A stretch of DNA of 64,000 bases from Escherichia phage slur14. A program made the translations under genes and the position numbers. Every line of letters starts with the position of its first letter. Within the stretch, counting starts at the first letter, position 1. Where the stretch lies: the sequence record NC_028448.1; one strand, given 5' to 3'. Positions 49,587-58,202 of this stretch are shown here, piece after piece. The notes under the pieces were generated by a model. It did not search any database, was not told the DNA's origin, and worked only from the letters and a program-made list of their open reading frames with translations.

Positions 49587-50072
49587 TCAAGTATTGTAAA
49601 ACATTTGATTCAATCGCTTATATTGCCGAATCTTTTGGTCAGAAAAAGAAATTTGAGTTTCAAGCCATTCAATATATTCTGCCGCAGCTTGCATCAGGTT
49701 ACCTTCATAGCCATCGTTATTTTCTTGTGCAGCTAATTTAGCTAATGCGTATGAAATACGTTCACCTTGAAAATCGGCTTTAGGCTTCTGAACAACTTGA
49801 TTAGTTCGCTCTACAACTTCTTCAATTTCGCCATTTTCTACTGATTCAGTATTCCACAAGCACCAATACGTAATTGGCTTATCATAGATGTTAATAATCT
49901 TTCCGTCGGAAAGTTCAATTTCAATAATTCCAGTATCAGGCTCTATATCATCTTCACATTCTTTTGCAAGTTCACGAACTTTAAAGACAGTACCTGCACT
50001 AAGTTCCGGCCAGTAATTACACAGCCCTGTATCAGCACGATTAATTCTAAACCACTTATCTACTGTAATCAT
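49587..50072 (-). CDS. pin: Pin (inhibitor of host Lon protease)
   Basis: Track ORF starts at TTG; trimmed to MITVDKWF with GGAG SD (161 aa as T4 Pin). Confidence 0.7.
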   Translation of the reverse strand: MITVDKWFRINRADTGLCNYWPELSAGTVFKVRELAKECEDDIEPDTGIIEIELSDGKIINIYDKPITYWCLWNTESVENGEIEEVVERTNQVVQKPKADFQGERISYALAKLAAQENNDGYEGNLMQAAAEYIEWLETQISFSDQKIRQYKRLNQMFYNT

Positions 50073-50109
50073 GTCCCATCTCCATATCAATTAAGTCATT
50101 TATCGTTGG

Positions 50110-50141
50110 TTCATTATATACTGTTTCTTCATCAGTGTAAA
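50110..50141 (-). promoter_or_regulatory. early promoter upstream of pin
   Basis: GTTTAC, 18-nt spacer, TATAAT on minus strand. Confidence 0.45.
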
Positions 50142-50194
50142 CCGGTTCTTCCGGCTCTGGCTCTACAGTTTCCCATCTAACCGCCCACCAAGGT

Positions 50195-50365
50195 TTAACC
50201 CCGAAGCTTATTAAGTTCTTCATAATCAATCCAGGATTCTAGTCCTGATGGCAAATCAGATTCAATTTCCCAAAGAAGCTCTTCAATTTTCTGAAGACGA
50301 TCTAGTTCTTCGGCTGGAATAGTAACCATTGACGGAGTTCTTGATACACTAATATCGTAAATCAT
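50195..50365 (-). CDS. small protein (56 aa)
   Basis: Track ORF trimmed to MIYDISV start. Confidence 0.4.
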   Translation of the reverse strand: MIYDISVSRTPSMVTIPAEELDRLQKIEELLWEIESDLPSGLESWIDYEELNKLRG

Positions 50366-50367
50366 AT

Positions 50368-50583
50368 TTACCCCAGTTTGACCATACAATCGCCATATTT
50401 CCATTTAGAAATAGACTTTTCACCGTTAGAATAATAAACTTCGAGTTTAGCACGGTTATTTTTAATTTGAATAACTTTGGCTGTCATCAAAGTTCCATAC
50501 CCGTAATAAACTGCAACCTCATCACCTACATATACCGCGCTTCCGCGGTAGTCATGGATATAATCAGTTCCTTCGAGAATCAT
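50368..50583 (-). CDS. hypothetical protein (71 aa)
   Basis: ORF track. Confidence 0.5.
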   Translation of the reverse strand: MILEGTDYIHDYRGSAVYVGDEVAVYYGYGTLMTAKVIQIKNNRAKLEVYYSNGEKSISKWKYGDCMVKLG

Positions 50584-50843
50584 TTAAAGTATTCCCGCAA
50601 TTTGTCAAATCCACCAATATAACTTCCATCAGGAGCAAATACCTGGGGCATTGTCAAGCCGATTTGAGTATCACGACCTAGTTTAGTCAGAAGCTCAGCG
50701 ATTTTCTCATCATCAAAAACACCTTTTTCCGGCATAATGTTGATAAATTCAAACGGTTGTTTCTTCACTGTCAAAAGACGTTTTGCATTATCGCAATACA
50801 CACATTTGTGGATGTTGCTATCATAACCATATACTTTAAACAT
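50580..50843 (-). CDS. nrdC: glutaredoxin NrdC
   Basis: 87 aa; CVYC active site; matches T4 NrdC from memory. Confidence 0.93.
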   Translation of the reverse strand: MFKVYGYDSNIHKCVYCDNAKRLLTVKKQPFEFINIMPEKGVFDDEKIAELLTKLGRDTQIGLTMPQVFAPDGSYIGGFDKLREYFK

Positions 50844-50844
50844 A

Positions 50845-51087
50845 TTATTCCTTAATTCCTAGTACTTGTTTAAAAGTCTCGTCGTAATCAAGACTTTGGC
50901 CCGTTTGTTCTTTATGTTTGTATATAATATCACTTACTTCTGATAGCATATTTTTATATGAACGAGTTAAAGCAGATTTAAGCACGCTGTATCTATCAGG
51001 AAATTTACCGTGTTCATTATAATAAGCTATTGCTAATTCACGGACTGCCTTTTCAGCAGTCTCCATATATTCTTTACGCTTGGTCAT
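50845..51087 (-). CDS. hypothetical protein (80 aa)
   Basis: ORF track. Confidence 0.5.
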
Positions 51088-51089
51088 TT

Positions 51090-51479
51090 TTAATCCAAAA
51101 TATTATTAGGCATTGGTTGAACACTCGCAAGTTCTTTAAAGAACTCAGTAGAGTCAGGTAATTTAACCATTTCCGGAGCATGCTTACTAAATTTATGTTT
51201 GCAATGACGGCATTTATATTCAAGTTCCGGTTTACGCCAGTTAATCAATTGAACTTGTTCAGTACCGCATTCAGGACAATTAGGAACGTTTTTAGAAGCC
51301 CTTTCGCGACGTTTAACCATAACCATAATAGCATCCCAGGCTGGAGGTTTAAAATCTAAATCATCACAACCATGAATCTTTCCGCGCATTTCCAGATCGT
51401 CTTCTTCACCAGCCATAATAATTTTAATTAGACTGGAATTACTTGAAGCTGCAATATCTTCTAATAGACGCTTTTTCAT
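51090..51479 (-). CDS. hypothetical zinc-ribbon protein (129 aa)
   Basis: CPECG...CRHC motif. Confidence 0.55.
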
Positions 51480-52405
51480 TTCAATACCTCAATAGCATTA
51501 CGTAAACCATTTGCTTTTGCATTAAGAGCTTTTAACAATTTAGTGTGTTCGGCAATCTGAGCTTCAACTTCAACTAGTCGAGATTTGAGGTATTCACGTT
51601 CTTCGCTCAAGTTATCAATCTTTTCTACTTTAGGCTCTTTTACAACTGTCTTATATGTATTAGGGTTCTTCAGTTTAATTAAAATGCGTGAACTGTATAA
51701 CATTGAACCATTATCTTCGGTTTCGTCATACATTTCTACTACGTCCATGATTTTTAACATCATGCGGAGTTTATAAGATAACGAACGAATAGTTTTGTTG
51801 TGCTTATTAATTTCTCTAGAGTTCATGGTGCCGAGATTACGTGAGTAATAATAAGGAACCTGGATATTAATTAATACTGATGAACCACCTGGCTTGTGTG
51901 TTACTTCATCAGCAATAACCCAATCCTTAACATGAACTGTATTTGTACGGTCATCGCCCGCGGTAAATAGTTTGCGAGCATGCTTAAAAAGCATATTCAC
52001 TTGGTCATTGAATTGACAAGCAAATTTATCAGCAAATTTAGTTTCAGGAATGGTAGATAACCAATCAGCCAAATGGGTCTTTTTAACATCGTTAACAATA
52101 GTAAATTCAACCAAATCAGTTATAGATGTCTCAGATTTAATAAAGCTCGGCTTCATAAAGTTTTTAATGTTATCGCGAGCTACAGTAGAAGATAACATAC
52201 GAGAACGTTTAAACCATTGAAGCAAATTGCCCAACGAATGAGAATAAGCGTTTTGAGTATCTTTACAGATATGATTTTCCTGGCCAACATATTGAAGGAA
52301 ATCACGAAGAATATTATTGATTACTGCTCTGTGTCCGATCTGATAATTACGGTGTTTAGTAATAAGACTGTCAAAATAATCAATATAATGTTTACGAGTT
52401 TTCAT
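51476..52405 (-). CDS. hypothetical protein (309 aa) with C-terminal coiled coil
   Basis: C-terminal [42 protein letters not shown]. Confidence 0.6.
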   Translation of the reverse strand: MKTRKHYIDYFDSLITKHRNYQIGHRAVINNILRDFLQYVGQENHICKDTQNAYSHSLGNLLQWFKRSRMLSSTVARDNIKNFMKPSFIKSETSITDLVEFTIVNDVKKTHLADWLSTIPETKFADKFACQFNDQVNMLFKHARKLFTAGDDRTNTVHVKDWVIADEVTHKPGGSSVLINIQVPYYYSRNLGTMNSREINKHNKTIRSLSYKLRMMLKIMDVVEMYDETEDNGSMLYSSRILIKLKNPNTYKTVVKEPKVEKIDNLSEEREYLKSRLVEVEAQIAEHTKLLKALNAKANGLRNAIEVLK

Positions 52406-52457
52406 GTTCTTCTCACTTGGTTAATGATTTATACTCCGAGCCATCCTTGGCTTTAAA

Positions 52458-53459
52458 TTACTTAATTAACTGTAAAGCTTGTTCCAGACGATCAAGACGA
52501 TTAACAGATTCTTCCCAAATCCTTTTAGCCTGCTCATATTCTTTCTGCGCTTTATTAGAAATTTCTAGAACTTCTTTATAAGCTTTTTCTAGTGCAATAA
52601 CTTCTGGACGAATTTCTACCGGTTCAGGTGAATCGTCAAGACATTCCATTAGTTCCTCAAGGGTAGTTTCTTCTTTAGGAGTATTCACAATTTCATCACA
52701 TTTTTGTTGGTAAATTTCTTTATCAGTAGGTGAATAAGCACATTTCACTTCACGAAGACTAATTACAATTTTATATCCTTCCCAACCGCATATATTCTTA
52801 AAAGGATAAGTATGAATATTTTCTACTGTTTCCATACAAAGTAATGCGGTCTCTAATTGACGAGTTATAGTGCTAGCAATTGAGAAAAATTTATTAATAT
52901 TCTTTTGGTTAGTTTCTGGTGTAAAAAATCCATAATTCACAAAAATAGATACTTTATTTTTATCAAGTTCATATTCTTTTACGATAATCATATCAGAAGC
53001 CAAAGGATGAATTTGACGATAATCGCCATAACATAATTTAGAAGCTGATTTTAGAATCTGTCCTTTGAAAAGTCTGAAATTACTAATCCAACGACGAGTA
53101 AAAATATTCTCAGGGTCTTCTTTATTATTAAGATGATAAGAATTAACATCACCGAACCAATTATATCCTACTACATCTTTAGTTCGTTTAATTTCTTTCC
53201 CAAAATTACCAAGAATATCCCGATTAACCAAATATGAAAGAAGACGAGACTCTTTAAAGGTTTTCTTGATAACATCTTTATCTACACGACTAGAAATTTT
53301 ACGAATTTCATGAATAAATTTAGTAGAAGAAACAATACTTGCATCAACACTATTGAGCCATTGATTGATAATAGAAAGAACGATATTTTGACCAAACATC
53401 GGTATAGCTTTATCATCAATAACGCTATTGAATGATTTGATATATTCGTTACGAGTCAT
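52458..53459 (-). CDS. hypothetical protein (333 aa) with C-terminal coiled coil
   Basis: Track ORF trimmed to MTRNEY with GAGGAG SD; C-terminal LEKAYKEVLEISNKAQKEYEQAKRIWEESVNRLDRLEQALQLIK. Confidence 0.6.
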   Translation of the reverse strand: MTRNEYIKSFNSVIDDKAIPMFGQNIVLSIINQWLNSVDASIVSSTKFIHEIRKISSRVDKDVIKKTFKESRLLSYLVNRDILGNFGKEIKRTKDVVGYNWFGDVNSYHLNNKEDPENIFTRRWISNFRLFKGQILKSASKLCYGDYRQIHPLASDMIIVKEYELDKNKVSIFVNYGFFTPETNQKNINKFFSIASTITRQLETALLCMETVENIHTYPFKNICGWEGYKIVISLREVKCAYSPTDKEIYQQKCDEIVNTPKEETTLEELMECLDDSPEPVEIRPEVIALEKAYKEVLEISNKAQKEYEQAKRIWEESVNRLDRLEQALQLIK

Positions 53460-53484
53460 ATTAATCTCCTCAGTAGAAAGTAAG

Positions 53485-53517
53485 AACATTATACCACATC
53501 CTTGTGGCAAAGTAAAC
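53485..53517 (-). promoter_or_regulatory. early promoter
   Basis: GTTTACTTTGCCACAAGGATGTGGTATAAT; near-copy of the 7424 promoter. Confidence 0.6.
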
Positions 53518-54542
53518 TAGTTCAGTGCATTTAGTGCATTGTTCAGTTTAGAACGTTGCTTTGTCAGATTTTGAACCCTTGACTGAGCTTGTTTTAACAC
53601 CTTTTCAGCTTCTAGCACTTCATTAGTTGCTTTAACGAGTTCATCATCTACTGCCTTAAGAGACTTCTCAATCGCATCCGCGTGCCATTTTTCAACAGGT
53701 TTAAGACTCGGATTTTCAACAGGAAGAAAATTCACTTTATTGAATTTCCATGCATCTTTATTACCTGAACTATACATCCAAAATTTAGGATCGTTTGATA
53801 AGTAATTGGATAAATTTAAATTTAAGTTATCTTGTACTTCCTGCTTTTTCTCTTGCGGGACTTCGTCCTTTCTCAAAAATTCATATTTAAATGAAACGAT
53901 CATATCAAGTTCATATGATGTTGTATCTAACTTAAATCGTTCAAAACGAGGTAAAATCTTAGATTGAACAGCAGCAACAACATCCATATACTTAAATGCT
54001 TCTGTCAACTGTGATTTAAGGCATTCACAAATTGAAAGAGAATTTTTTGTATTAGGTTTAAAGCTAATTCGTGCAGTTCTATTATTTTCTTTTAACGGTC
54101 TTACTTCCATCTGAAGAGTATAACCATCAAATTTCAGGTTCTTTAAGTTAATATCAGAACCTTTTAATCGACTAGCAGTAGACAAAATTTGCTTTAATTG
54201 TTTACGGAATAGAGCAATAAATCTCCATTCAAGACGATAATGATTTGGATTGAAAAATCCAGATGATAAATCAACCTTACTTTGACCAACGCCTTGAACA
54301 AATAGAGGATTTTTATAATCAATAGTTTTACAGAAATCGGTGAGCTGCTCACGAGCAGTCATTTGTGTAATATACCCAGCTTTACTAAAATGACGTAACC
54401 ATTCACTGCTATTCATATACTTAAAGTGAATATCACGATTAACTTTATCAGGGTCTAAATTATTTTGGCACAAAAATGTCATAACATCACGAGTATAGCT
54501 GGCATTACGAACCATATCTTCAATTTGAGAACGAGTTTTCAT
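53517..54542 (-). CDS. hypothetical protein (341 aa) with C-terminal coiled coil
   Basis: C-terminal VDDELVKATNEVLEAEKVLKQAQSRVQNLTKQRSKLNNALNALN. Confidence 0.6.
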   Translation of the reverse strand: MKTRSQIEDMVRNASYTRDVMTFLCQNNLDPDKVNRDIHFKYMNSSEWLRHFSKAGYITQMTAREQLTDFCKTIDYKNPLFVQGVGQSKVDLSSGFFNPNHYRLEWRFIALFRKQLKQILSTASRLKGSDINLKNLKFDGYTLQMEVRPLKENNRTARISFKPNTKNSLSICECLKSQLTEAFKYMDVVAAVQSKILPRFERFKLDTTSYELDMIVSFKYEFLRKDEVPQEKKQEVQDNLNLNLSNYLSNDPKFWMYSSGNKDAWKFNKVNFLPVENPSLKPVEKWHADAIEKSLKAVDDELVKATNEVLEAEKVLKQAQSRVQNLTKQRSKLNNALNALN

Positions 54543-54550
54543 GGTGTTCC

Positions 54551-55453
54551 TTAAGATTTAAGTAAATCAACAATTTTAATTAATTTTTCACGCTCAGATT
54601 TAGCTTTACTACTCAATCCAGATAGTCTGAAAATTTCATCGTCATACTGTTGAATAGAAATATTCAGCTCTTCAATTTGCTTATTAAAATAATCAATTTG
54701 CTCAGAATGTTTTTCATTACTGCGAACTGGTACAGGTTTTGTAGGCAATTTAGTTAAACTGGATTCATCCGGGCGATAAATTAAAATACAACTTGAACCA
54801 ATCGGGCATTTAGCACCAGACACATATTCTAATGTTCCGGCTTCTTTTAAAACTTCAAAAGCTAAACAGAGATGATGCCCCATATTAACATAATCTGTAG
54901 AGCGAGCTCTGACGTAATAATCATCGCCGCGAATACTAAATTTAAAGCATTTAAGGTCTTCTGTATTATTGGTCTTAAAAATCATTTGTTTATCTAGACC
55001 TTTAGCTAATCGAGCGCCTAATGCTAATAATCGTCGTTGATTTTCCCACAAATCTGCGATCATTTGGTCAAATGATAATTTCGGCATTAGTCGACCGTAA
55101 AGATCATAGCCTTTATTATAATTGCGAAGAATTTCACTTGCATTAATACGAGACAATGCTCCAATTTTATTAAGGGCTTTCATAATGCGATTAGATAAAC
55201 CCATTCCAGACCCGTTTGTTCGCTGCAAATGTTTTTCTAATCCAAATCCAATATCAACTTTAAATTTATCTAAAATTTCAGCATGAACATCTCTGTCAAT
55301 AACATTCAAATCCAAAGTTGGGTTAAATCTATGAAAAAATTTATCTGGCTCTCCACGACGAAGTACAGTCCATTCATTTAATTTTTTATTAACTAAAGAT
55401 TTAATTACTGCATTGACATTATTAATTACTACTGACATATTTTCCTCACTCAA
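54551..55453 (-). CDS. hypothetical protein (300 aa) with C-terminal coiled coil
   Basis: C-terminal FNKQIEELNISIQQYDDEIFRLSGLSSKAKSEREKLIKIVDLLKS. Confidence 0.6.
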   Translation of the reverse strand: MSEENMSVVINNVNAVIKSLVNKKLNEWTVLRRGEPDKFFHRFNPTLDLNVIDRDVHAEILDKFKVDIGFGLEKHLQRTNGSGMGLSNRIMKALNKIGALSRINASEILRNYNKGYDLYGRLMPKLSFDQMIADLWENQRRLLALGARLAKGLDKQMIFKTNNTEDLKCFKFSIRGDDYYVRARSTDYVNMGHHLCLAFEVLKEAGTLEYVSGAKCPIGSSCILIYRPDESSLTKLPTKPVPVRSNEKHSEQIDYFNKQIEELNISIQQYDDEIFRLSGLSSKAKSEREKLIKIVDLLKS

Positions 55454-55860
55454 TTTTCAATTTTAATTTTACTAAATACGCAGAATATGATGGAAAAGAC
55501 TATATAAGCACCACACACAGATTGAACTAATACCATTCCAAAGAACCAAACAATATTATCAAACAATGTCTGTTTTACGTCGAAAGGACGTAAACTTACA
55601 GTAATATTATCACCTTTTTCTATTGAAGAATACATCTCTGGGGAAATATATTCGCTAAATCTATAACCGTCTTTGAGTTCATATACGGCAATAAACGATA
55701 AACTAGACCCTTTTCCTTGTGTTCCTGTAATGGTATTAACTACAGTAACATCATAATCTTTATAATGCATATAATCATTAATTGCGTAATAACCATATGC
55801 AACTACTACACATAAACAACATATCAATAAATTCAATCTTTTAATTATCAACTGTTTCAT
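55450..55860 (-). CDS. membrane protein (136 aa)
   Basis: N- and C-terminal TM segments. Confidence 0.55.
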   Translation of the reverse strand: MKQLIIKRLNLLICCLCVVVAYGYYAINDYMHYKDYDVTVVNTITGTQGKGSSLSFIAVYELKDGYRFSEYISPEMYSSIEKGDNITVSLRPFDVKQTLFDNIVWFFGMVLVQSVCGAYIVFSIIFCVFSKIKIEN

Positions 55861-55915
55861 AATAATCTCAATTAAAAGGGCTTAGAACCATTATACCATC
55901 CTTGGTATAAAGCGG

Positions 55916-56443
55916 TTATGCGAGTACCGTCTTTAACCGTTCTTCAAACTTCCGAAGAGTATTTTGGCGTTCAGCTCTTTGCTTTTTGTAAGTTTCAATA
56001 CGCTCTGAAATGAGAGTGTATCGTTCATTTACTGATTCTTTCATAAAATCAGGAATTTCACGAGAAGCTTTAATCTCGTCAAATTTATCAATAACAGCTT
56101 GCTCTTCAGCAATTAAGTTATCATACATTAAAATATCTTTCTTGATGAACTCAATATCTTCTTGAGTTACACGAGATAATTTAGATGCTTTATCCTTTTT
56201 GTACTGTTCGTTAGTATCACGAGACCAGTGCAATGTACGATTTTTATTCGTATTTTTGTAAATTTCTACAATACCGATCTCATCAATAATAACGATCCAA
56301 TTCCAACGGGATTTGTAAATTTGTCCTCCATCAACAGTGATTTCACCTCCGATTGAGATGTCATTAAAGAACTTGCTTTGTGCTTCAGATTTAAATTTAC
56401 CATCGTTGTAATTTACCAAGTTGAAAATATCTTTAGCGTTCAT
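55916..56443 (-). CDS. hypothetical protein (175 aa)
   Basis: Track ORF 55916..56503 trimmed to MNAKDIF; upstream part is promoter cassette read-through. Confidence 0.55.
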   Translation of the reverse strand: MNAKDIFNLVNYNDGKFKSEAQSKFFNDISIGGEITVDGGQIYKSRWNWIVIIDEIGIVEIYKNTNKNRTLHWSRDTNEQYKKDKASKLSRVTQEDIEFIKKDILMYDNLIAEEQAVIDKFDEIKASREIPDFMKESVNERYTLISERIETYKKQRAERQNTLRKFEERLKTVLA

Positions 56444-56449
56444 TTTGTG

Positions 56450-56501
56450 TTCCTCCGTAGTTGATAGTTGTATAGTACCACAGAGGAACGGTCTTGTAAA
56501 C
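56450..56501 (-). promoter_or_regulatory. early promoter cassette
   Basis: Near-identical copy of the 2401 cassette. Confidence 0.6.
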
Positions 56502-56503
56502 AA

Positions 56504-56818
56504 CTAAAAGAAACTTCTTTCACAATTTTTTCCACTGAACCACGCACTCACTGCTTTCTTAGTCTCAGGAGCAGTGTTATCCATAAACCATTCAAAGGCA
56601 GCCTTTTTATGATTCTGGAGGGCTTCTCGGGCTTTAATCTGCTCACGGTCTATTAACACTAACACATGAGCCTTTCTTGTCACCAAGGGCTTCTTATGAT
56701 TCTTGGAGTATTCCCAGTCATTTGTCCAACGCATTGTCGTTGCGAACTGATGAACCGCGTCTTTAATTTTAGTTTCGTAAATTTCACGAGCCTTTGAGTA
56801 TAACATCACTACCTCCAT
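56504..56818 (-). CDS. hypothetical protein (104 aa)
   Basis: ORF track. Confidence 0.5.
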   Translation of the reverse strand: MEVVMLYSKAREIYETKIKDAVHQFATTMRWTNDWEYSKNHKKPLVTRKAHVLVLIDREQIKAREALQNHKKAAFEWFMDNTAPETKKAVSAWFSGKNCERSFF

Positions 56819-56907
56819 TTACCAGTTTAATTCTAATCATCTTTTTGATGGCAGTCCATATAATCTATTTCTGAACTGCCTTTTTGTCATAGAAGTCCTC
56901 TTATGAA

Positions 56908-57876
56908 TTATTTCAGAAGAGTAACCTCAGCGATTTCTTGCCAGCCGTTTTTGTCGGTCATAATAAAGTCAGCAAGATAAAGTGCAGTACGCAGTGAAAC
57001 ATTGCGTAAACGGTTAACATTGACTTTCATCCATGATAATGCTTTATAAGTTTCTTCATCAGAAAGACCGCGCTTTTGCATCATGTCGGTTGAAAGAATA
57101 ACATCTTCAACCCTGACCATAATTTCTTCATTAGTGTGAACACCCAAATCTAAATAAACTGAGCGGGACACTAATGCTTGTAAATGTGGAGCAAGTTTAG
57201 TACCACGGTCTAATTCGCGGTCAATGTCAACGTTTGTGATAAAAACAATCGTTCCTTTAAATTCAAACTCACGCTCAATGCCTTTTTCTTCTAAGTAAGA
57301 AGATGCAGTGCTCCAGCAGACTTTACGGGTCTCTCCGGTGTCCAGAGCGGCTTTTAGAAGATTAAGAATGTCCATATCAGAGAAAACATCCACATCATCA
57401 ATCAAAAGGACAGAATTCTCTTCACGATTATTCCAGAGCTGTTCATAAAGACCAATACCAGAGATTTTACCGTTAATGCTTTTATATTCAATGTATCCAT
57501 TATCATTTGCTTTATTCAAAGCTTTATCTAAAGAATACGTTTTACCAATACCCGCCGCACCAGAGATAATTAATGAACGAATGTTTCCGTTAATAATACC
57601 ATTCGTCATCATTCCCATAACATTAAATCTTTTATTAATGCGGGTTTTCATATCTTCATATGATTCTTTAACTTCTTCAACTTTTACACCATCATATGAA
57701 ATGTCTGATTTGTAAACCCAAACACCGCGACGTTTACCGTCAATTTCAACAAAAACTTTACCATCTCCTTGTGCATCTACCGGAGCATTATCTGGGAACC
57801 ATTCGCCTAAGAGCTCAAAAGTTCCAGAGATTTCTTTACCGAAGTAGATACCCTTATTGATAGTTACAGTTTTCAT
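56908..57876 (-). CDS. AAA+/P-loop ATPase (322 aa)
   Basis: Walker A GAAGIGKT and Walker B LLIDDVD. Confidence 0.65.
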   Translation of the reverse strand: MKTVTINKGIYFGKEISGTFELLGEWFPDNAPVDAQGDGKVFVEIDGKRRGVWVYKSDISYDGVKVEEVKESYEDMKTRINKRFNVMGMMTNGIINGNIRSLIISGAAGIGKTYSLDKALNKANDNGYIEYKSINGKISGIGLYEQLWNNREENSVLLIDDVDVFSDMDILNLLKAALDTGETRKVCWSTASSYLEEKGIEREFEFKGTIVFITNVDIDRELDRGTKLAPHLQALVSRSVYLDLGVHTNEEIMVRVEDVILSTDMMQKRGLSDEETYKALSWMKVNVNRLRNVSLRTALYLADFIMTDKNGWQEIAEVTLLK

Positions 57877-57933
57877 TTTATTCTCCTTTGATTTGATAGG
57901 ACTACTATAACATAGTCCTATCAGTTTGTATAC

Positions 57934-58134
57934 TTATTTTGACATTTCTTCGATGTCACGACGATACCCGTCACGAACTTCACGAAGAGCTTCAAGGCCA
58001 CACATAGGCTCGATACCAGTAATGTGAACTTGATTAATCTGATACTCTACATCTTCTAACTGAGCGAAAACATAACGACGTTCAGCTGCACAACCAGATT
58101 TAGCTTTACCGAAACGTTTATTCAAAGTAGTCAT
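57934..58134 (-). CDS. hypothetical protein (66 aa)
   Basis: ORF track; promoter cassette upstream. Confidence 0.5.
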   Translation of the reverse strand: MTTLNKRFGKAKSGCAAERRYVFAQLEDVEYQINQVHITGIEPMCGLEALREVRDGYRRDIEEMSK

Positions 58135-58159
58135 TTTGTATCTCCAATTTACTCATTTG

Positions 58160-58202
58160 TTTTGATAGGTCTATAGTATCAACAACTACAGACCATGTAA
58201 AC
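58160..58202 (-). promoter_or_regulatory. early promoter
   Basis: GTTTAC ... GATACTATAG on minus strand. Confidence 0.5.

Follow-up and report, generated by a model that had tools for sequence, protein, structure and literature searches.

Four tandem full-length paralogues in the nrdC region of a T4-like coliphage as a probable family of early anti-defence proteins

Introduction

T4 is a reference phage, and much of its accessory genome is functionally unassigned. The nrdC region of T4-like phages raises the question of why four genes of similar size, each closing with a heptad-rich helix, stand head-to-tail in one array, and what the proteins they encode might do for the phage. Here we address this question in Escherichia phage slur14, of which a stretch of 64,000 nucleotides (NC_028448.1; hereafter the window) was analysed and in which the array, composed of nrdC.3, nrdC.4, nrdC.5 and nrdC.6, lies between positions 51476 and 55453. 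The four genes are full-length paralogues that go back to one ancestral gene of about 330 codons, copied in tandem, and we consider it probable, with considerable room left for doubt, that the array is a family of early proteins directed against host defences that has expanded in place.

The functional lead comes from published work on T4. A T4 clone with deletions was unable to infect ECOR17 owing to the sirtuin defence Dsr1, and the early gene nrdC.5, expressed alone from a plasmid as the T4 allele, restored infection and plating on dsr1-carrying cells (PMC9391042; Srikant, Guegler, Laub, eLife 2022). A literature search on the mechanism of NrdC.5 returned nothing beyond this phenotype. According to a 2026 preprint, the trigger of Dsr1 is the phage major capsid protein, a late product that is sensed via a tetratricopeptide repeat (TPR) domain; the same TPR sensor is common to Avs7 and to defence proteins with other effectors, and NADase, nuclease and kinase effectors have been reported for the Avs7/Dsr1-type sensor family (PMC12803255). 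The genes of the array were already known, one of them with a published function, and what the present analysis adds is their recognition as a single expanded family with a conserved coiled-coil tail, a relationship among the four families that we did not find described in the literature searched.

Results

Homology along the whole length of the four proteins

Transcription of the four genes, all of them on the minus strand, proceeds from nrdC.6 through nrdC.5 and nrdC.4 to nrdC.3. The genes, and a central motif that unites their products, are as follows (aa, amino acids).

nrdC.3, 51476..52405, minus strand: 309 aa, the most polymorphic of the four paralogues
nrdC.4, 52458..53459, minus strand: 333 aa counted from the ATG
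nrdC.5, 53517..54542, minus strand: 341 aa, orthologue of the Dsr1-counteracting T4 protein
nrdC.6, 54551..55438, minus strand: 295 aa from the ATG, or 5 codons more from a TTG at 55453
Central two-helix motif of nrdC.4, 53034..53105, minus strand: aa 119-142, FTRRWISNFRLFKGQILKSASKL, common to the four paralogues

Family alignments were built from database homologues together with orthologues from fetched loci. By BLASTP, nrdC.3 and nrdC.4 share 25.7% identity over 226 aa (E=1.9e-8), and with the tails removed the two families align in hhalign with a probability of 97% (E=2.7e-11). Against the combined nrdC.3+nrdC.4 profile, nrdC.5 reached a probability of 88.6% (E=2.6e-6), and 130 collinear columns were aligned at E=3.4e-4 without the tails. 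The correspondence can be followed element by element, as hhalign pairs the two-helix motif of nrdC.5, EWRFIALFRKQLKQILSTASRL, with that of nrdC.4, RRWISNFRLFKGQILKSASKL, and a later helix of nrdC.5, QLTEAFKYMDVV, with QLETALLCMETV of nrdC.4; in the superfamily alignment, the nrdC.4 motif FTRRWISNFRLFKGQILKSASKL lines up with EWRFIALFRKQLKQILSTASRL of nrdC.5, MIADLWENQRRLLALGARL of nrdC.6 and FACQFNDQVNMLFKHARKL of nrdC.3. The profile similarity on which a first-pass annotation of this DNA had let its case depend was accordingly found for nrdC.3 with nrdC.4 and for nrdC.5 with the two combined, and not for nrdC.6 compared directly (E=0.03-0.07).

The link to nrdC.6 is provided by a single-copy protein of 338 aa from the Enterobacter phage CIP9, which is matched by the hidden Markov models (HMMs) of nrdC.5 (E=4e-10), nrdC.6 (E=8e-9) and nrdC.3/4 (E=5e-5), the match to the nrdC.6 HMM running from the central motif through the tail. 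This protein was used as the seed of an iterative profile search among 179 open reading frames (ORFs) of at least 120 aa, which came from the window and from nine loci. Convergence was reached at 21 sequences, namely all nrdC.3-nrdC.6 members and the proteins of CIP9, Roth01, S16 and CF1, and none of the other ORFs was recruited, including those of the heptad-tailed nrdC.8 and Pin. The final alignment has common motifs along its entire length. The M(K)TR start that the first-pass annotation had noticed on three proteins is present in nrdC.3, nrdC.4 and nrdC.5, returns as KTRKEY in divergent nrdC.5 orthologues and, judged from these alignments, belongs to the full-length homology. In a much larger space, a family HMM search with nrdC.5 retrieved 13 representatives from 1.84 billion proteins, none of them bacterial and none linking the other families. 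Together, the BLASTP and hhalign results, the bridge through CIP9 and the predicted structures described below contradict the earlier statement that each protein has a different N-terminal domain, and they support the accompanying idea of one diversifying family.

The C-terminal heptad tail

The conserved ends of the four proteins correspond to the following segments.

nrdC.3 C-terminal heptad helix, 51476..51625, minus strand: last 49 aa and stop codon
nrdC.4 C-terminal heptad helix, 52458..52607, minus strand: last 49 aa and stop codon; predicted helix 285-332
nrdC.5 C-terminal heptad helix, 53517..53687, minus strand: last 56 aa and stop codon
nrdC.6 C-terminal helical tail, 54551..54715, minus strand: last 54 aa and stop codon, with one break at SGLSS

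With the heptad score defined as the hydrophobic occupancy of the a and d positions over the last 45 aa, the C-termini of nrdC.3-nrdC.6 take ranks 1-4 among the window's 62 minus-strand ORFs with a length of 100 aa or more. The tails are 49-56 residues long, and each keeps one heptad register over 7-8 heptads; that of nrdC.3 has seven, with IRLILAI in the a and LLVHLLL in the d positions, and that of nrdC.5 has eight in a single register. Composition-preserving shuffles reached or exceeded the observed single-register score in 0/20000 cases for nrdC.3 and likewise for nrdC.5 (0/20000), in 4/20000 for nrdC.6 and in 135/20000 for nrdC.4. In the AlphaFold2 (AF2) models, the tail of nrdC.4 is an uninterrupted helix (285-332) and that of nrdC.6 consists of helices 242-271 and 277-294, separated by a single break. 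Given the heptad ranks, the shuffles and the AF2 helices, the tail is real and not a product of chance, and the coiled-coil-like helix that had been proposed at the end of every protein is thereby borne out.

Counted from the C-terminus, the heptad register is identical in nrdC.3, nrdC.4 and nrdC.5, and the end motif L-x-x-A/I-[LIV]-x-x-L is present in the final family alignment. In each of the three orthologous families in which conservation was compared, the tail is the most conserved segment, with 58% identity vs 39-48% elsewhere for nrdC.4 (orthologues below 70% identity), 34% vs 16-24% for nrdC.5 (divergent orthologues) and 63% vs 28-46% for nrdC.6 (orthologues). Profile comparisons confined to the tail were weak (best E about 7e-4 in hhalign); such comparisons are unreliable for coiled coils and were not counted as evidence of homology. 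The tails are homologous as parts of whole proteins, and not as a portable module.

A separate observation concerns nrdC.8, which lies just upstream of the array and whose own tail ranks 5th of the 62 ORFs in heptad score, with 102/20000 shuffles reaching that score; profile comparison of nrdC.8 with nrdC.3-nrdC.6 gave no similarity.

Predicted structures

AF2 models cover two members, nrdC.4 (mean predicted local distance difference test score, pLDDT, 81.2) and nrdC.6 (mean pLDDT 76.5). The nrdC.4 model consists of helices at 3-84, strands at 88-110, helices at 119-142, a beta-beta-alpha-beta-beta unit at 158-235 and the terminal helix at 285-332, and the nrdC.6 model has the same order of elements: a helical bundle, short strands, two helices, beta-beta-alpha-beta-beta, a linker and a terminal helix. 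In Foldseek searches of BFVD, both models match the same uncharacterised proteins of 300-370 aa (E=1e-8 to 1e-4), the common matches coming from phages IME523, PM2, fHyAci03, Acj61, Acj9, Cronus and fHe-Yen9-01, and the nrdC.4 model in addition matches the nrdC.6 of JS10 (E=6.3e-6). As nrdC.3 and nrdC.5 align to motifs of the two modelled members, the models suggest a layout for the family in which a helical bundle at the N-terminus is followed by an alpha/beta domain, and a flexible linker leads from there to an amphipathic C-terminal helix of 7-8 heptads.

When the PDB was searched with profiles from the nrdC.4, nrdC.5 and nrdC.6 alignments at E up to 1, no relative with a solved structure was found; the matches were keratin and Smc for nrdC.5 and nrdC.6, and designed helical repeats for nrdC.4. 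Tail terminators appear among the Foldseek matches of the nrdC.4 model with weak E-values. The resemblance to these proteins, which are lambda gpU-like, is a weak structural score that comes without sequence similarity, and tail terminators are late virion genes whereas the genes of the array are dispensable accessory ones (nrdC.5 being described as early); we treat it as a lead and do not place the array in the tail-terminator family. Residues 30-86 of nrdC.3 weakly resemble the integrase N-terminal SAM-like (core-binding) domain PF02899 (Pfam E=0.079, 13.7 bits vs a cut-off of 22.3) and a tyrosine recombinase model of NCBIfam (E=0.0013, 18 bits vs a cut-off of 279), and the NCBIfam scan gave no match above cut-offs.

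Gene identities and anti-defence surroundings

Over positions 51000-56000, the window matches Escherichia phage slur03 at 100% identity and hundreds of Tequatrovirus genomes at 96-99%, which identifies the stretch, by its sequence, as Tequatrovirus. The neighbours of the array in the window are nrdD, endonuclease VII (gp49), pin and nrdC, and the annotated T4 record assigns the four ORFs, in a syntenic arrangement, to NrdC.3, NrdC.4, NrdC.5 and NrdC.6, in agreement with the nrdC-region position that the first-pass annotation had proposed. Its four head-to-tail ORFs exist on the minus strand at the coordinates it gave, except for the last start: the TTG at 55453 is doubtful because both T4 and Bas37 annotate the ATG corresponding to 55438, which is probably the true start of nrdC.6. 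Its description of the genes as uncharacterised is out of date for nrdC.5, for which the Dsr1 phenotype has been published (PMC9391042), and its guess at an anti-defence role fits that same work.

The nrdC.5 of the window is 96.2% identical to T4 NrdC.5 and occupies the same position between nrdC.6 and nrdC.4. It matches Pfam DUF7235 (PF23882) over its full length (E=4.2e-121, 404.5 bits with a cut-off of 30, model positions 1-307), and the Pfam scan of the window proteins gave no DUF7235 match for nrdC.3, nrdC.4 or nrdC.6. Of these, nrdC.3 (E=2.7e-116) and nrdC.4 (E=6.1e-169) match phrog_1435 over the whole profile, nrdC.6 matches phrog_2257 (E=1.5e-152), and precomputed Pfam assignments place PF26897 on nrdC.4 homologues and PF26899 on nrdC.6 homologues. 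The protein encoded by nrdC.3 is 59.9% identical to T4 nrdC.3 vs 96.8% to the Bas37 protein.

Two neighbouring genes provide the context of the array.

nrdC.8, 55916..56443, minus strand: 175 aa, outside the paralogue family, with a heptad helix at its end
nrdC.1, 50845..51087, minus strand: 80 aa, an anti-defence gene close to the array

A 2025 preprint reports that Septu is inhibited by NrdC.1 and Druantia type III by Bas37_0203 (bioRxiv 10.1101/2025.11.20.689424). The nrdC.1 product of the window is 100% identical to T4 NrdC.1, and that of nrdC.8 is 99.4% identical to Bas37_0203, which its sequence identifies as the nrdC.8 orthologue. In T6/T4, gp49.2 inhibits OLD (PMC13096335); for T4 gp49.2 and gp49.3, tblastn of the window at E up to 1e-3 found no homologue.

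Copy number, alleles and losses among phages

In five distant T4-like phages, S16, CF1, Roth01, W16 and CIP9, a single copy of 324-386 aa lies upstream of nrdC. The proteins of Salmonella phage S16, Citrobacter phage CF1, Klebsiella phage Roth01 and Enterobacter phage CIP9 have both a heptad-scoring tail and membership in the iterative search, and that of Acinetobacter phage W16, which fell below the search threshold, was assigned solely on where it lies, how long it is and how its tail scores. Coliphages of the Dhaka/Mosig/Gapriver type have three copies (nrdC.6, an nrdC.5-like gene and nrdC.4), and Tequatrovirus has four, nrdC.3 being the additional one.

Within Tequatrovirus, nrdC.3 and the adjacent nrdC.2 (51090-52405, minus strand) are 60% and 63% identical to T4 and 96-97% identical to Bas37, and the genes that flank the pair are 97-100% identical to T4 and Bas37 alike, which looks like a local allele replacement of nrdC.2-nrdC.3. 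By tblastn, at least three allele classes of nrdC.3 occur in the genus, at identities of at least 90%, about 75-78% and about 60%. Losses are found as well. In ACG-C40 (L023 3305-3716), nrdC.5 is reduced to its first 71 codons and nrdC.3 to its tail, nrdC.4 is gone and only nrdC.6 is intact, and in Pinarejo (L024 3439-3652) most of nrdC.6 is deleted so that the tail alone remains. The 'tail-only' tblastn matches in these two phages had been candidates for swaps of the N-terminal domain and were rejected, both being deletions.

Two further sequences, both retrieved with the nrdC.5 family HMM, carry the tail on another N-terminal part. P0230 (173 aa; L015 81-641) consists of an unrelated N-part of about 119 aa and the exact nrdC.5 tail; it lies on an 803-bp metagenome contig that is too short to separate a true domain swap from a chimeric assembly, and may be a chimera. 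P0235 resembles it as an apparent chimera with the tail on another N-part. With the cases consisting of deletions and this possibly chimeric contig, no convincing example of a different N-terminal domain joined to the tail was found.

Rearrangements of other kinds were also encountered. In P0119 (299 aa), the middle of nrdC.5 continues in frame into the second half of nrdC.3, the junction being a VN dipeptide that both have. At L005 5971-7003, nrdC.4 is split into ORFs of 193 and 158 aa, and BFVD holds half-length nrdC.4 proteins from phages T2 and vB_EcoM_G8, T2 carrying a split nrdC.4. In the nrdC.6 of Shigella phage Sf25 (P0121, 378 aa), about 83 residues are duplicated in tandem inside the protein, with two occurrences of IRAHSTDYVNMG...QIEEL; the duplication takes in the latter half of the alpha/beta domain together with the beginning of the tail.

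Discussion

The reading that we favour, and consider more probable than all others together, is that the array encodes early anti-defence proteins of one family that grew by tandem expansion. Because the paralogue nrdC.5 disarms Dsr1, nrdC.3, nrdC.4 and nrdC.6 are candidate immune inhibitors, and the replacement of the nrdC.3 allele, the natural deletions and the split genes give the array an accessory, fast-changing character. Here we speculate that each paralogue might act as a stoichiometric protein inhibitor, produced ahead of the late trigger, which would bind a host defence protein and block its sensing or its firing. The choice of the defence protein to be bound would fall to the globular body, which diverges fast, and the slowly evolving tail would keep the inhibitor in a homo-oligomer and hence raise its avidity. 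According to this model, nrdC.3, nrdC.4 and nrdC.6 might be directed at other defence proteins or at other variants of Dsr1-type sensors.

Two alternatives make different use of the tail. If the array were modular, four unrelated N-terminal effector domains would carry the same portable coiled coil for oligomerisation or targeting, in line with the lack of BLASTP similarity for five of the six pairs, the weak similarity of tail-only profiles (E about 1e-3 for nrdC.3-nrdC.5 and nrdC.4-nrdC.5) and the combination of an unrelated N-part with the exact nrdC.5 tail in P0230. However, homology was detected with the tails removed, both between nrdC.3 and nrdC.4 (E=2.7e-11) and between nrdC.5 and the two combined (E=3.4e-4), the nrdC.4 and nrdC.6 models agree in element order and BFVD matches, the match between the CIP9 protein and nrdC.6 begins at the central motif and continues through the tail, and the iterative search unites the four families and leaves out the heptad-tailed nrdC.8 and Pin. 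In addition, P0230 may be an assembly chimera, given its 803-bp contig, and the remaining 'tail-only' matches are deletion remnants. On account of the homology ahead of the tail we reject the modular arrangement, which we would be greatly surprised to see vindicated. The tails could instead join the paralogues into one hetero-oligomeric machine, with all four being needed against Dsr1, for example, and the adjacency of the genes on one strand is compatible with this, as are the agreement of the tails in length, in register from the C-terminus and in the end motif L-x-x-A/I-[LIV]-x-x-L. We nevertheless regard such a complex as unlikely because plasmid-borne nrdC.5 restored infection alone (PMC9391042), distant T4-like phages have a single copy, and sequenced isolates without members exist, with only nrdC.6 intact in ACG-C40 and most of nrdC.6 missing in Pinarejo; moreover, the tail sequence is conserved family by family, which fits self-association better.

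Other alternatives concern the function of the proteins and not their assembly. Counter-defence might have been a later recruitment of nrdC.5, with nrdC.3, nrdC.4 and nrdC.6 serving host take-over or nucleic-acid transactions, a possibility that is minor and yet deserves to be kept in mind. The literature searches found no experiment that ties these three genes to a defence system, and the N-terminal helices of nrdC.3 weakly match the integrase SAM-like domain (Pfam E=0.079, NCBIfam E=0.0013). Those matches, however, are far under the curated cut-offs (13.7 vs 22.3 bits and 18 vs 279 bits), the frequent deletion, splitting and allele swapping in isolates are typical of arms-race accessory genes, and the three genes are flanked by others with demonstrated anti-defence activity. 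Very improbable, in our view, is a decoy function, by which the alpha/beta domain would mimic a virion protein of the tail-terminator type and bait the sensors of phage structural proteins. Tail terminators do occur in the Foldseek list, if with weak E-values, and DSR2 is known to recognise a tail tube protein; the trigger of Dsr1, by contrast, is the major capsid protein and not a tail protein (PMC12803255).

A bolder version of the favoured anti-defence reading, which we put forward as a long shot, is that the array constitutes the phage counterpart to the diversified Avs7/Dsr1-type TPR sensors. Each paralogue would then block another clade of sensors before capsid protein is made, and the tail would either oligomerise the inhibitor or dock in the TPR groove. 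If this were true, duplication, allele swaps and loss within the array would track the sensor repertoire of the hosts.

Several points weigh against the anti-defence family as we describe it. Experimental support is limited to nrdC.5, the literature search having found no report on nrdC.3, nrdC.4 or nrdC.6, and about 4% of positions differ between the nrdC.5 of the window and the T4 NrdC.5 used in the experiment. Direct binding of NrdC.5 to Dsr1 is assumed by analogy with DSAD1 and DSR2, and the tail is proposed, from its sequence and from single-chain models, to oligomerise. As to the family itself, nrdC.6 gave non-significant direct profile comparisons with the other families in hhalign (E=0.03-0.07) and joins them via predicted structure and a bridging sequence only, and the database of the iterative search held only 179 ORFs, which makes its E-values lenient.

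Comparison with known systems helps to place the array. With respect to T4 NrdC.5 (DUF7235, PF23882), the gene at 53517-54542 is the orthologue by identity (96.2%), position and full-length Pfam match, and nrdC.3, nrdC.4 and nrdC.6 are paralogues of the same architecture that fall into phrog_1435 (PF26897 on nrdC.4 homologues) and phrog_2257 (PF26899), have less than 26% mutual identity and, unlike T4 NrdC.5, have no reported function. DSAD1 of an SPbeta-type phage inhibits the DSR2 sirtuin defence by binding (PMC10973363, PMC11087589, PMC11263360). It is a functional analogue, as a phage blocker of a SIR2-domain NADase defence that senses a late structural protein, and differs in its target (DSR2 vs Dsr1) and in the phage lineage, binding by NrdC.5 being proposed by analogy. 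No DSAD1 chain appeared in the PDB profile searches with nrdC.4, nrdC.5 and nrdC.6 at E up to 1, the PDB being assumed to hold DSR2-DSAD1 complexes. In addition, the array sits inside an anti-defence cluster of the kind known from T-even phages (the dmd-tifA-adfA 'anti-TA island', that is, anti-toxin-antitoxin; gp49.2, nrdC.1 and Bas37_0203/nrdC.8) and, like such clusters, stands among non-essential genes that vary between isolates. The other known members of these clusters are unrelated single genes, whereas here one family is present in four tandem copies.

The known Dsr1 antagonist NrdC.5 is thus one of four tandem paralogues, in a family whose copy number ranges from one, in distant T4-like phages, to four, in T4. 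The array may represent a case of an anti-defence gene that diversified through duplication in place, with replaced alleles and lost copies seen among natural isolates, and it provides three named candidates, nrdC.3, nrdC.4 and nrdC.6, for unassigned counter-defence activities, together with a structural hypothesis of a variable body and a conserved coiled-coil tail. This could be of relevance for the prediction of host range in T4-like therapeutic phages.

Additional observations at the locus

Between nrdC.5 and nrdC.4 there is a gap of 57 nucleotides, in which positions 53488-53516 on the minus strand contain TTTACT, a 17-nucleotide spacing and TATAAT with an upstream TG, the best intergenic minus-strand promoter-like site of the array; a small hairpin at 53492-53509 overlaps it. 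The promoter and terminator scan of 50800-58200 found 38 promoter-like sites vs 32.7±6.2 in shuffles, which is no excess.

In S16, CF1, Roth01 and CIP9, a conserved protein of 260-284 aa that ends in ...EFKATF..AKDD.THAFYKRPS is encoded upstream of the family member, directly so in S16, CF1 and Roth01, and with two small genes in between in CIP9 (L018 6965-7747, L019 7312-8100, L020 6323-7141 and L022 4896-5750). It lacks the heptad tail and stayed outside the family in the iterative search.

A second variable spot of the island lies between pin and nrdC, where 50056-50583 on the minus strand holds ORFs of 57, 69 and 71 aa. Finally, nrdC.10 (56908-57876, minus strand) encodes a protein of 322 aa with a Walker A-like GAAGIGKT and 99% identity to its T4 counterpart; every T4-like locus fetched contains an ORF of similar size that shares the conserved C-terminal end.

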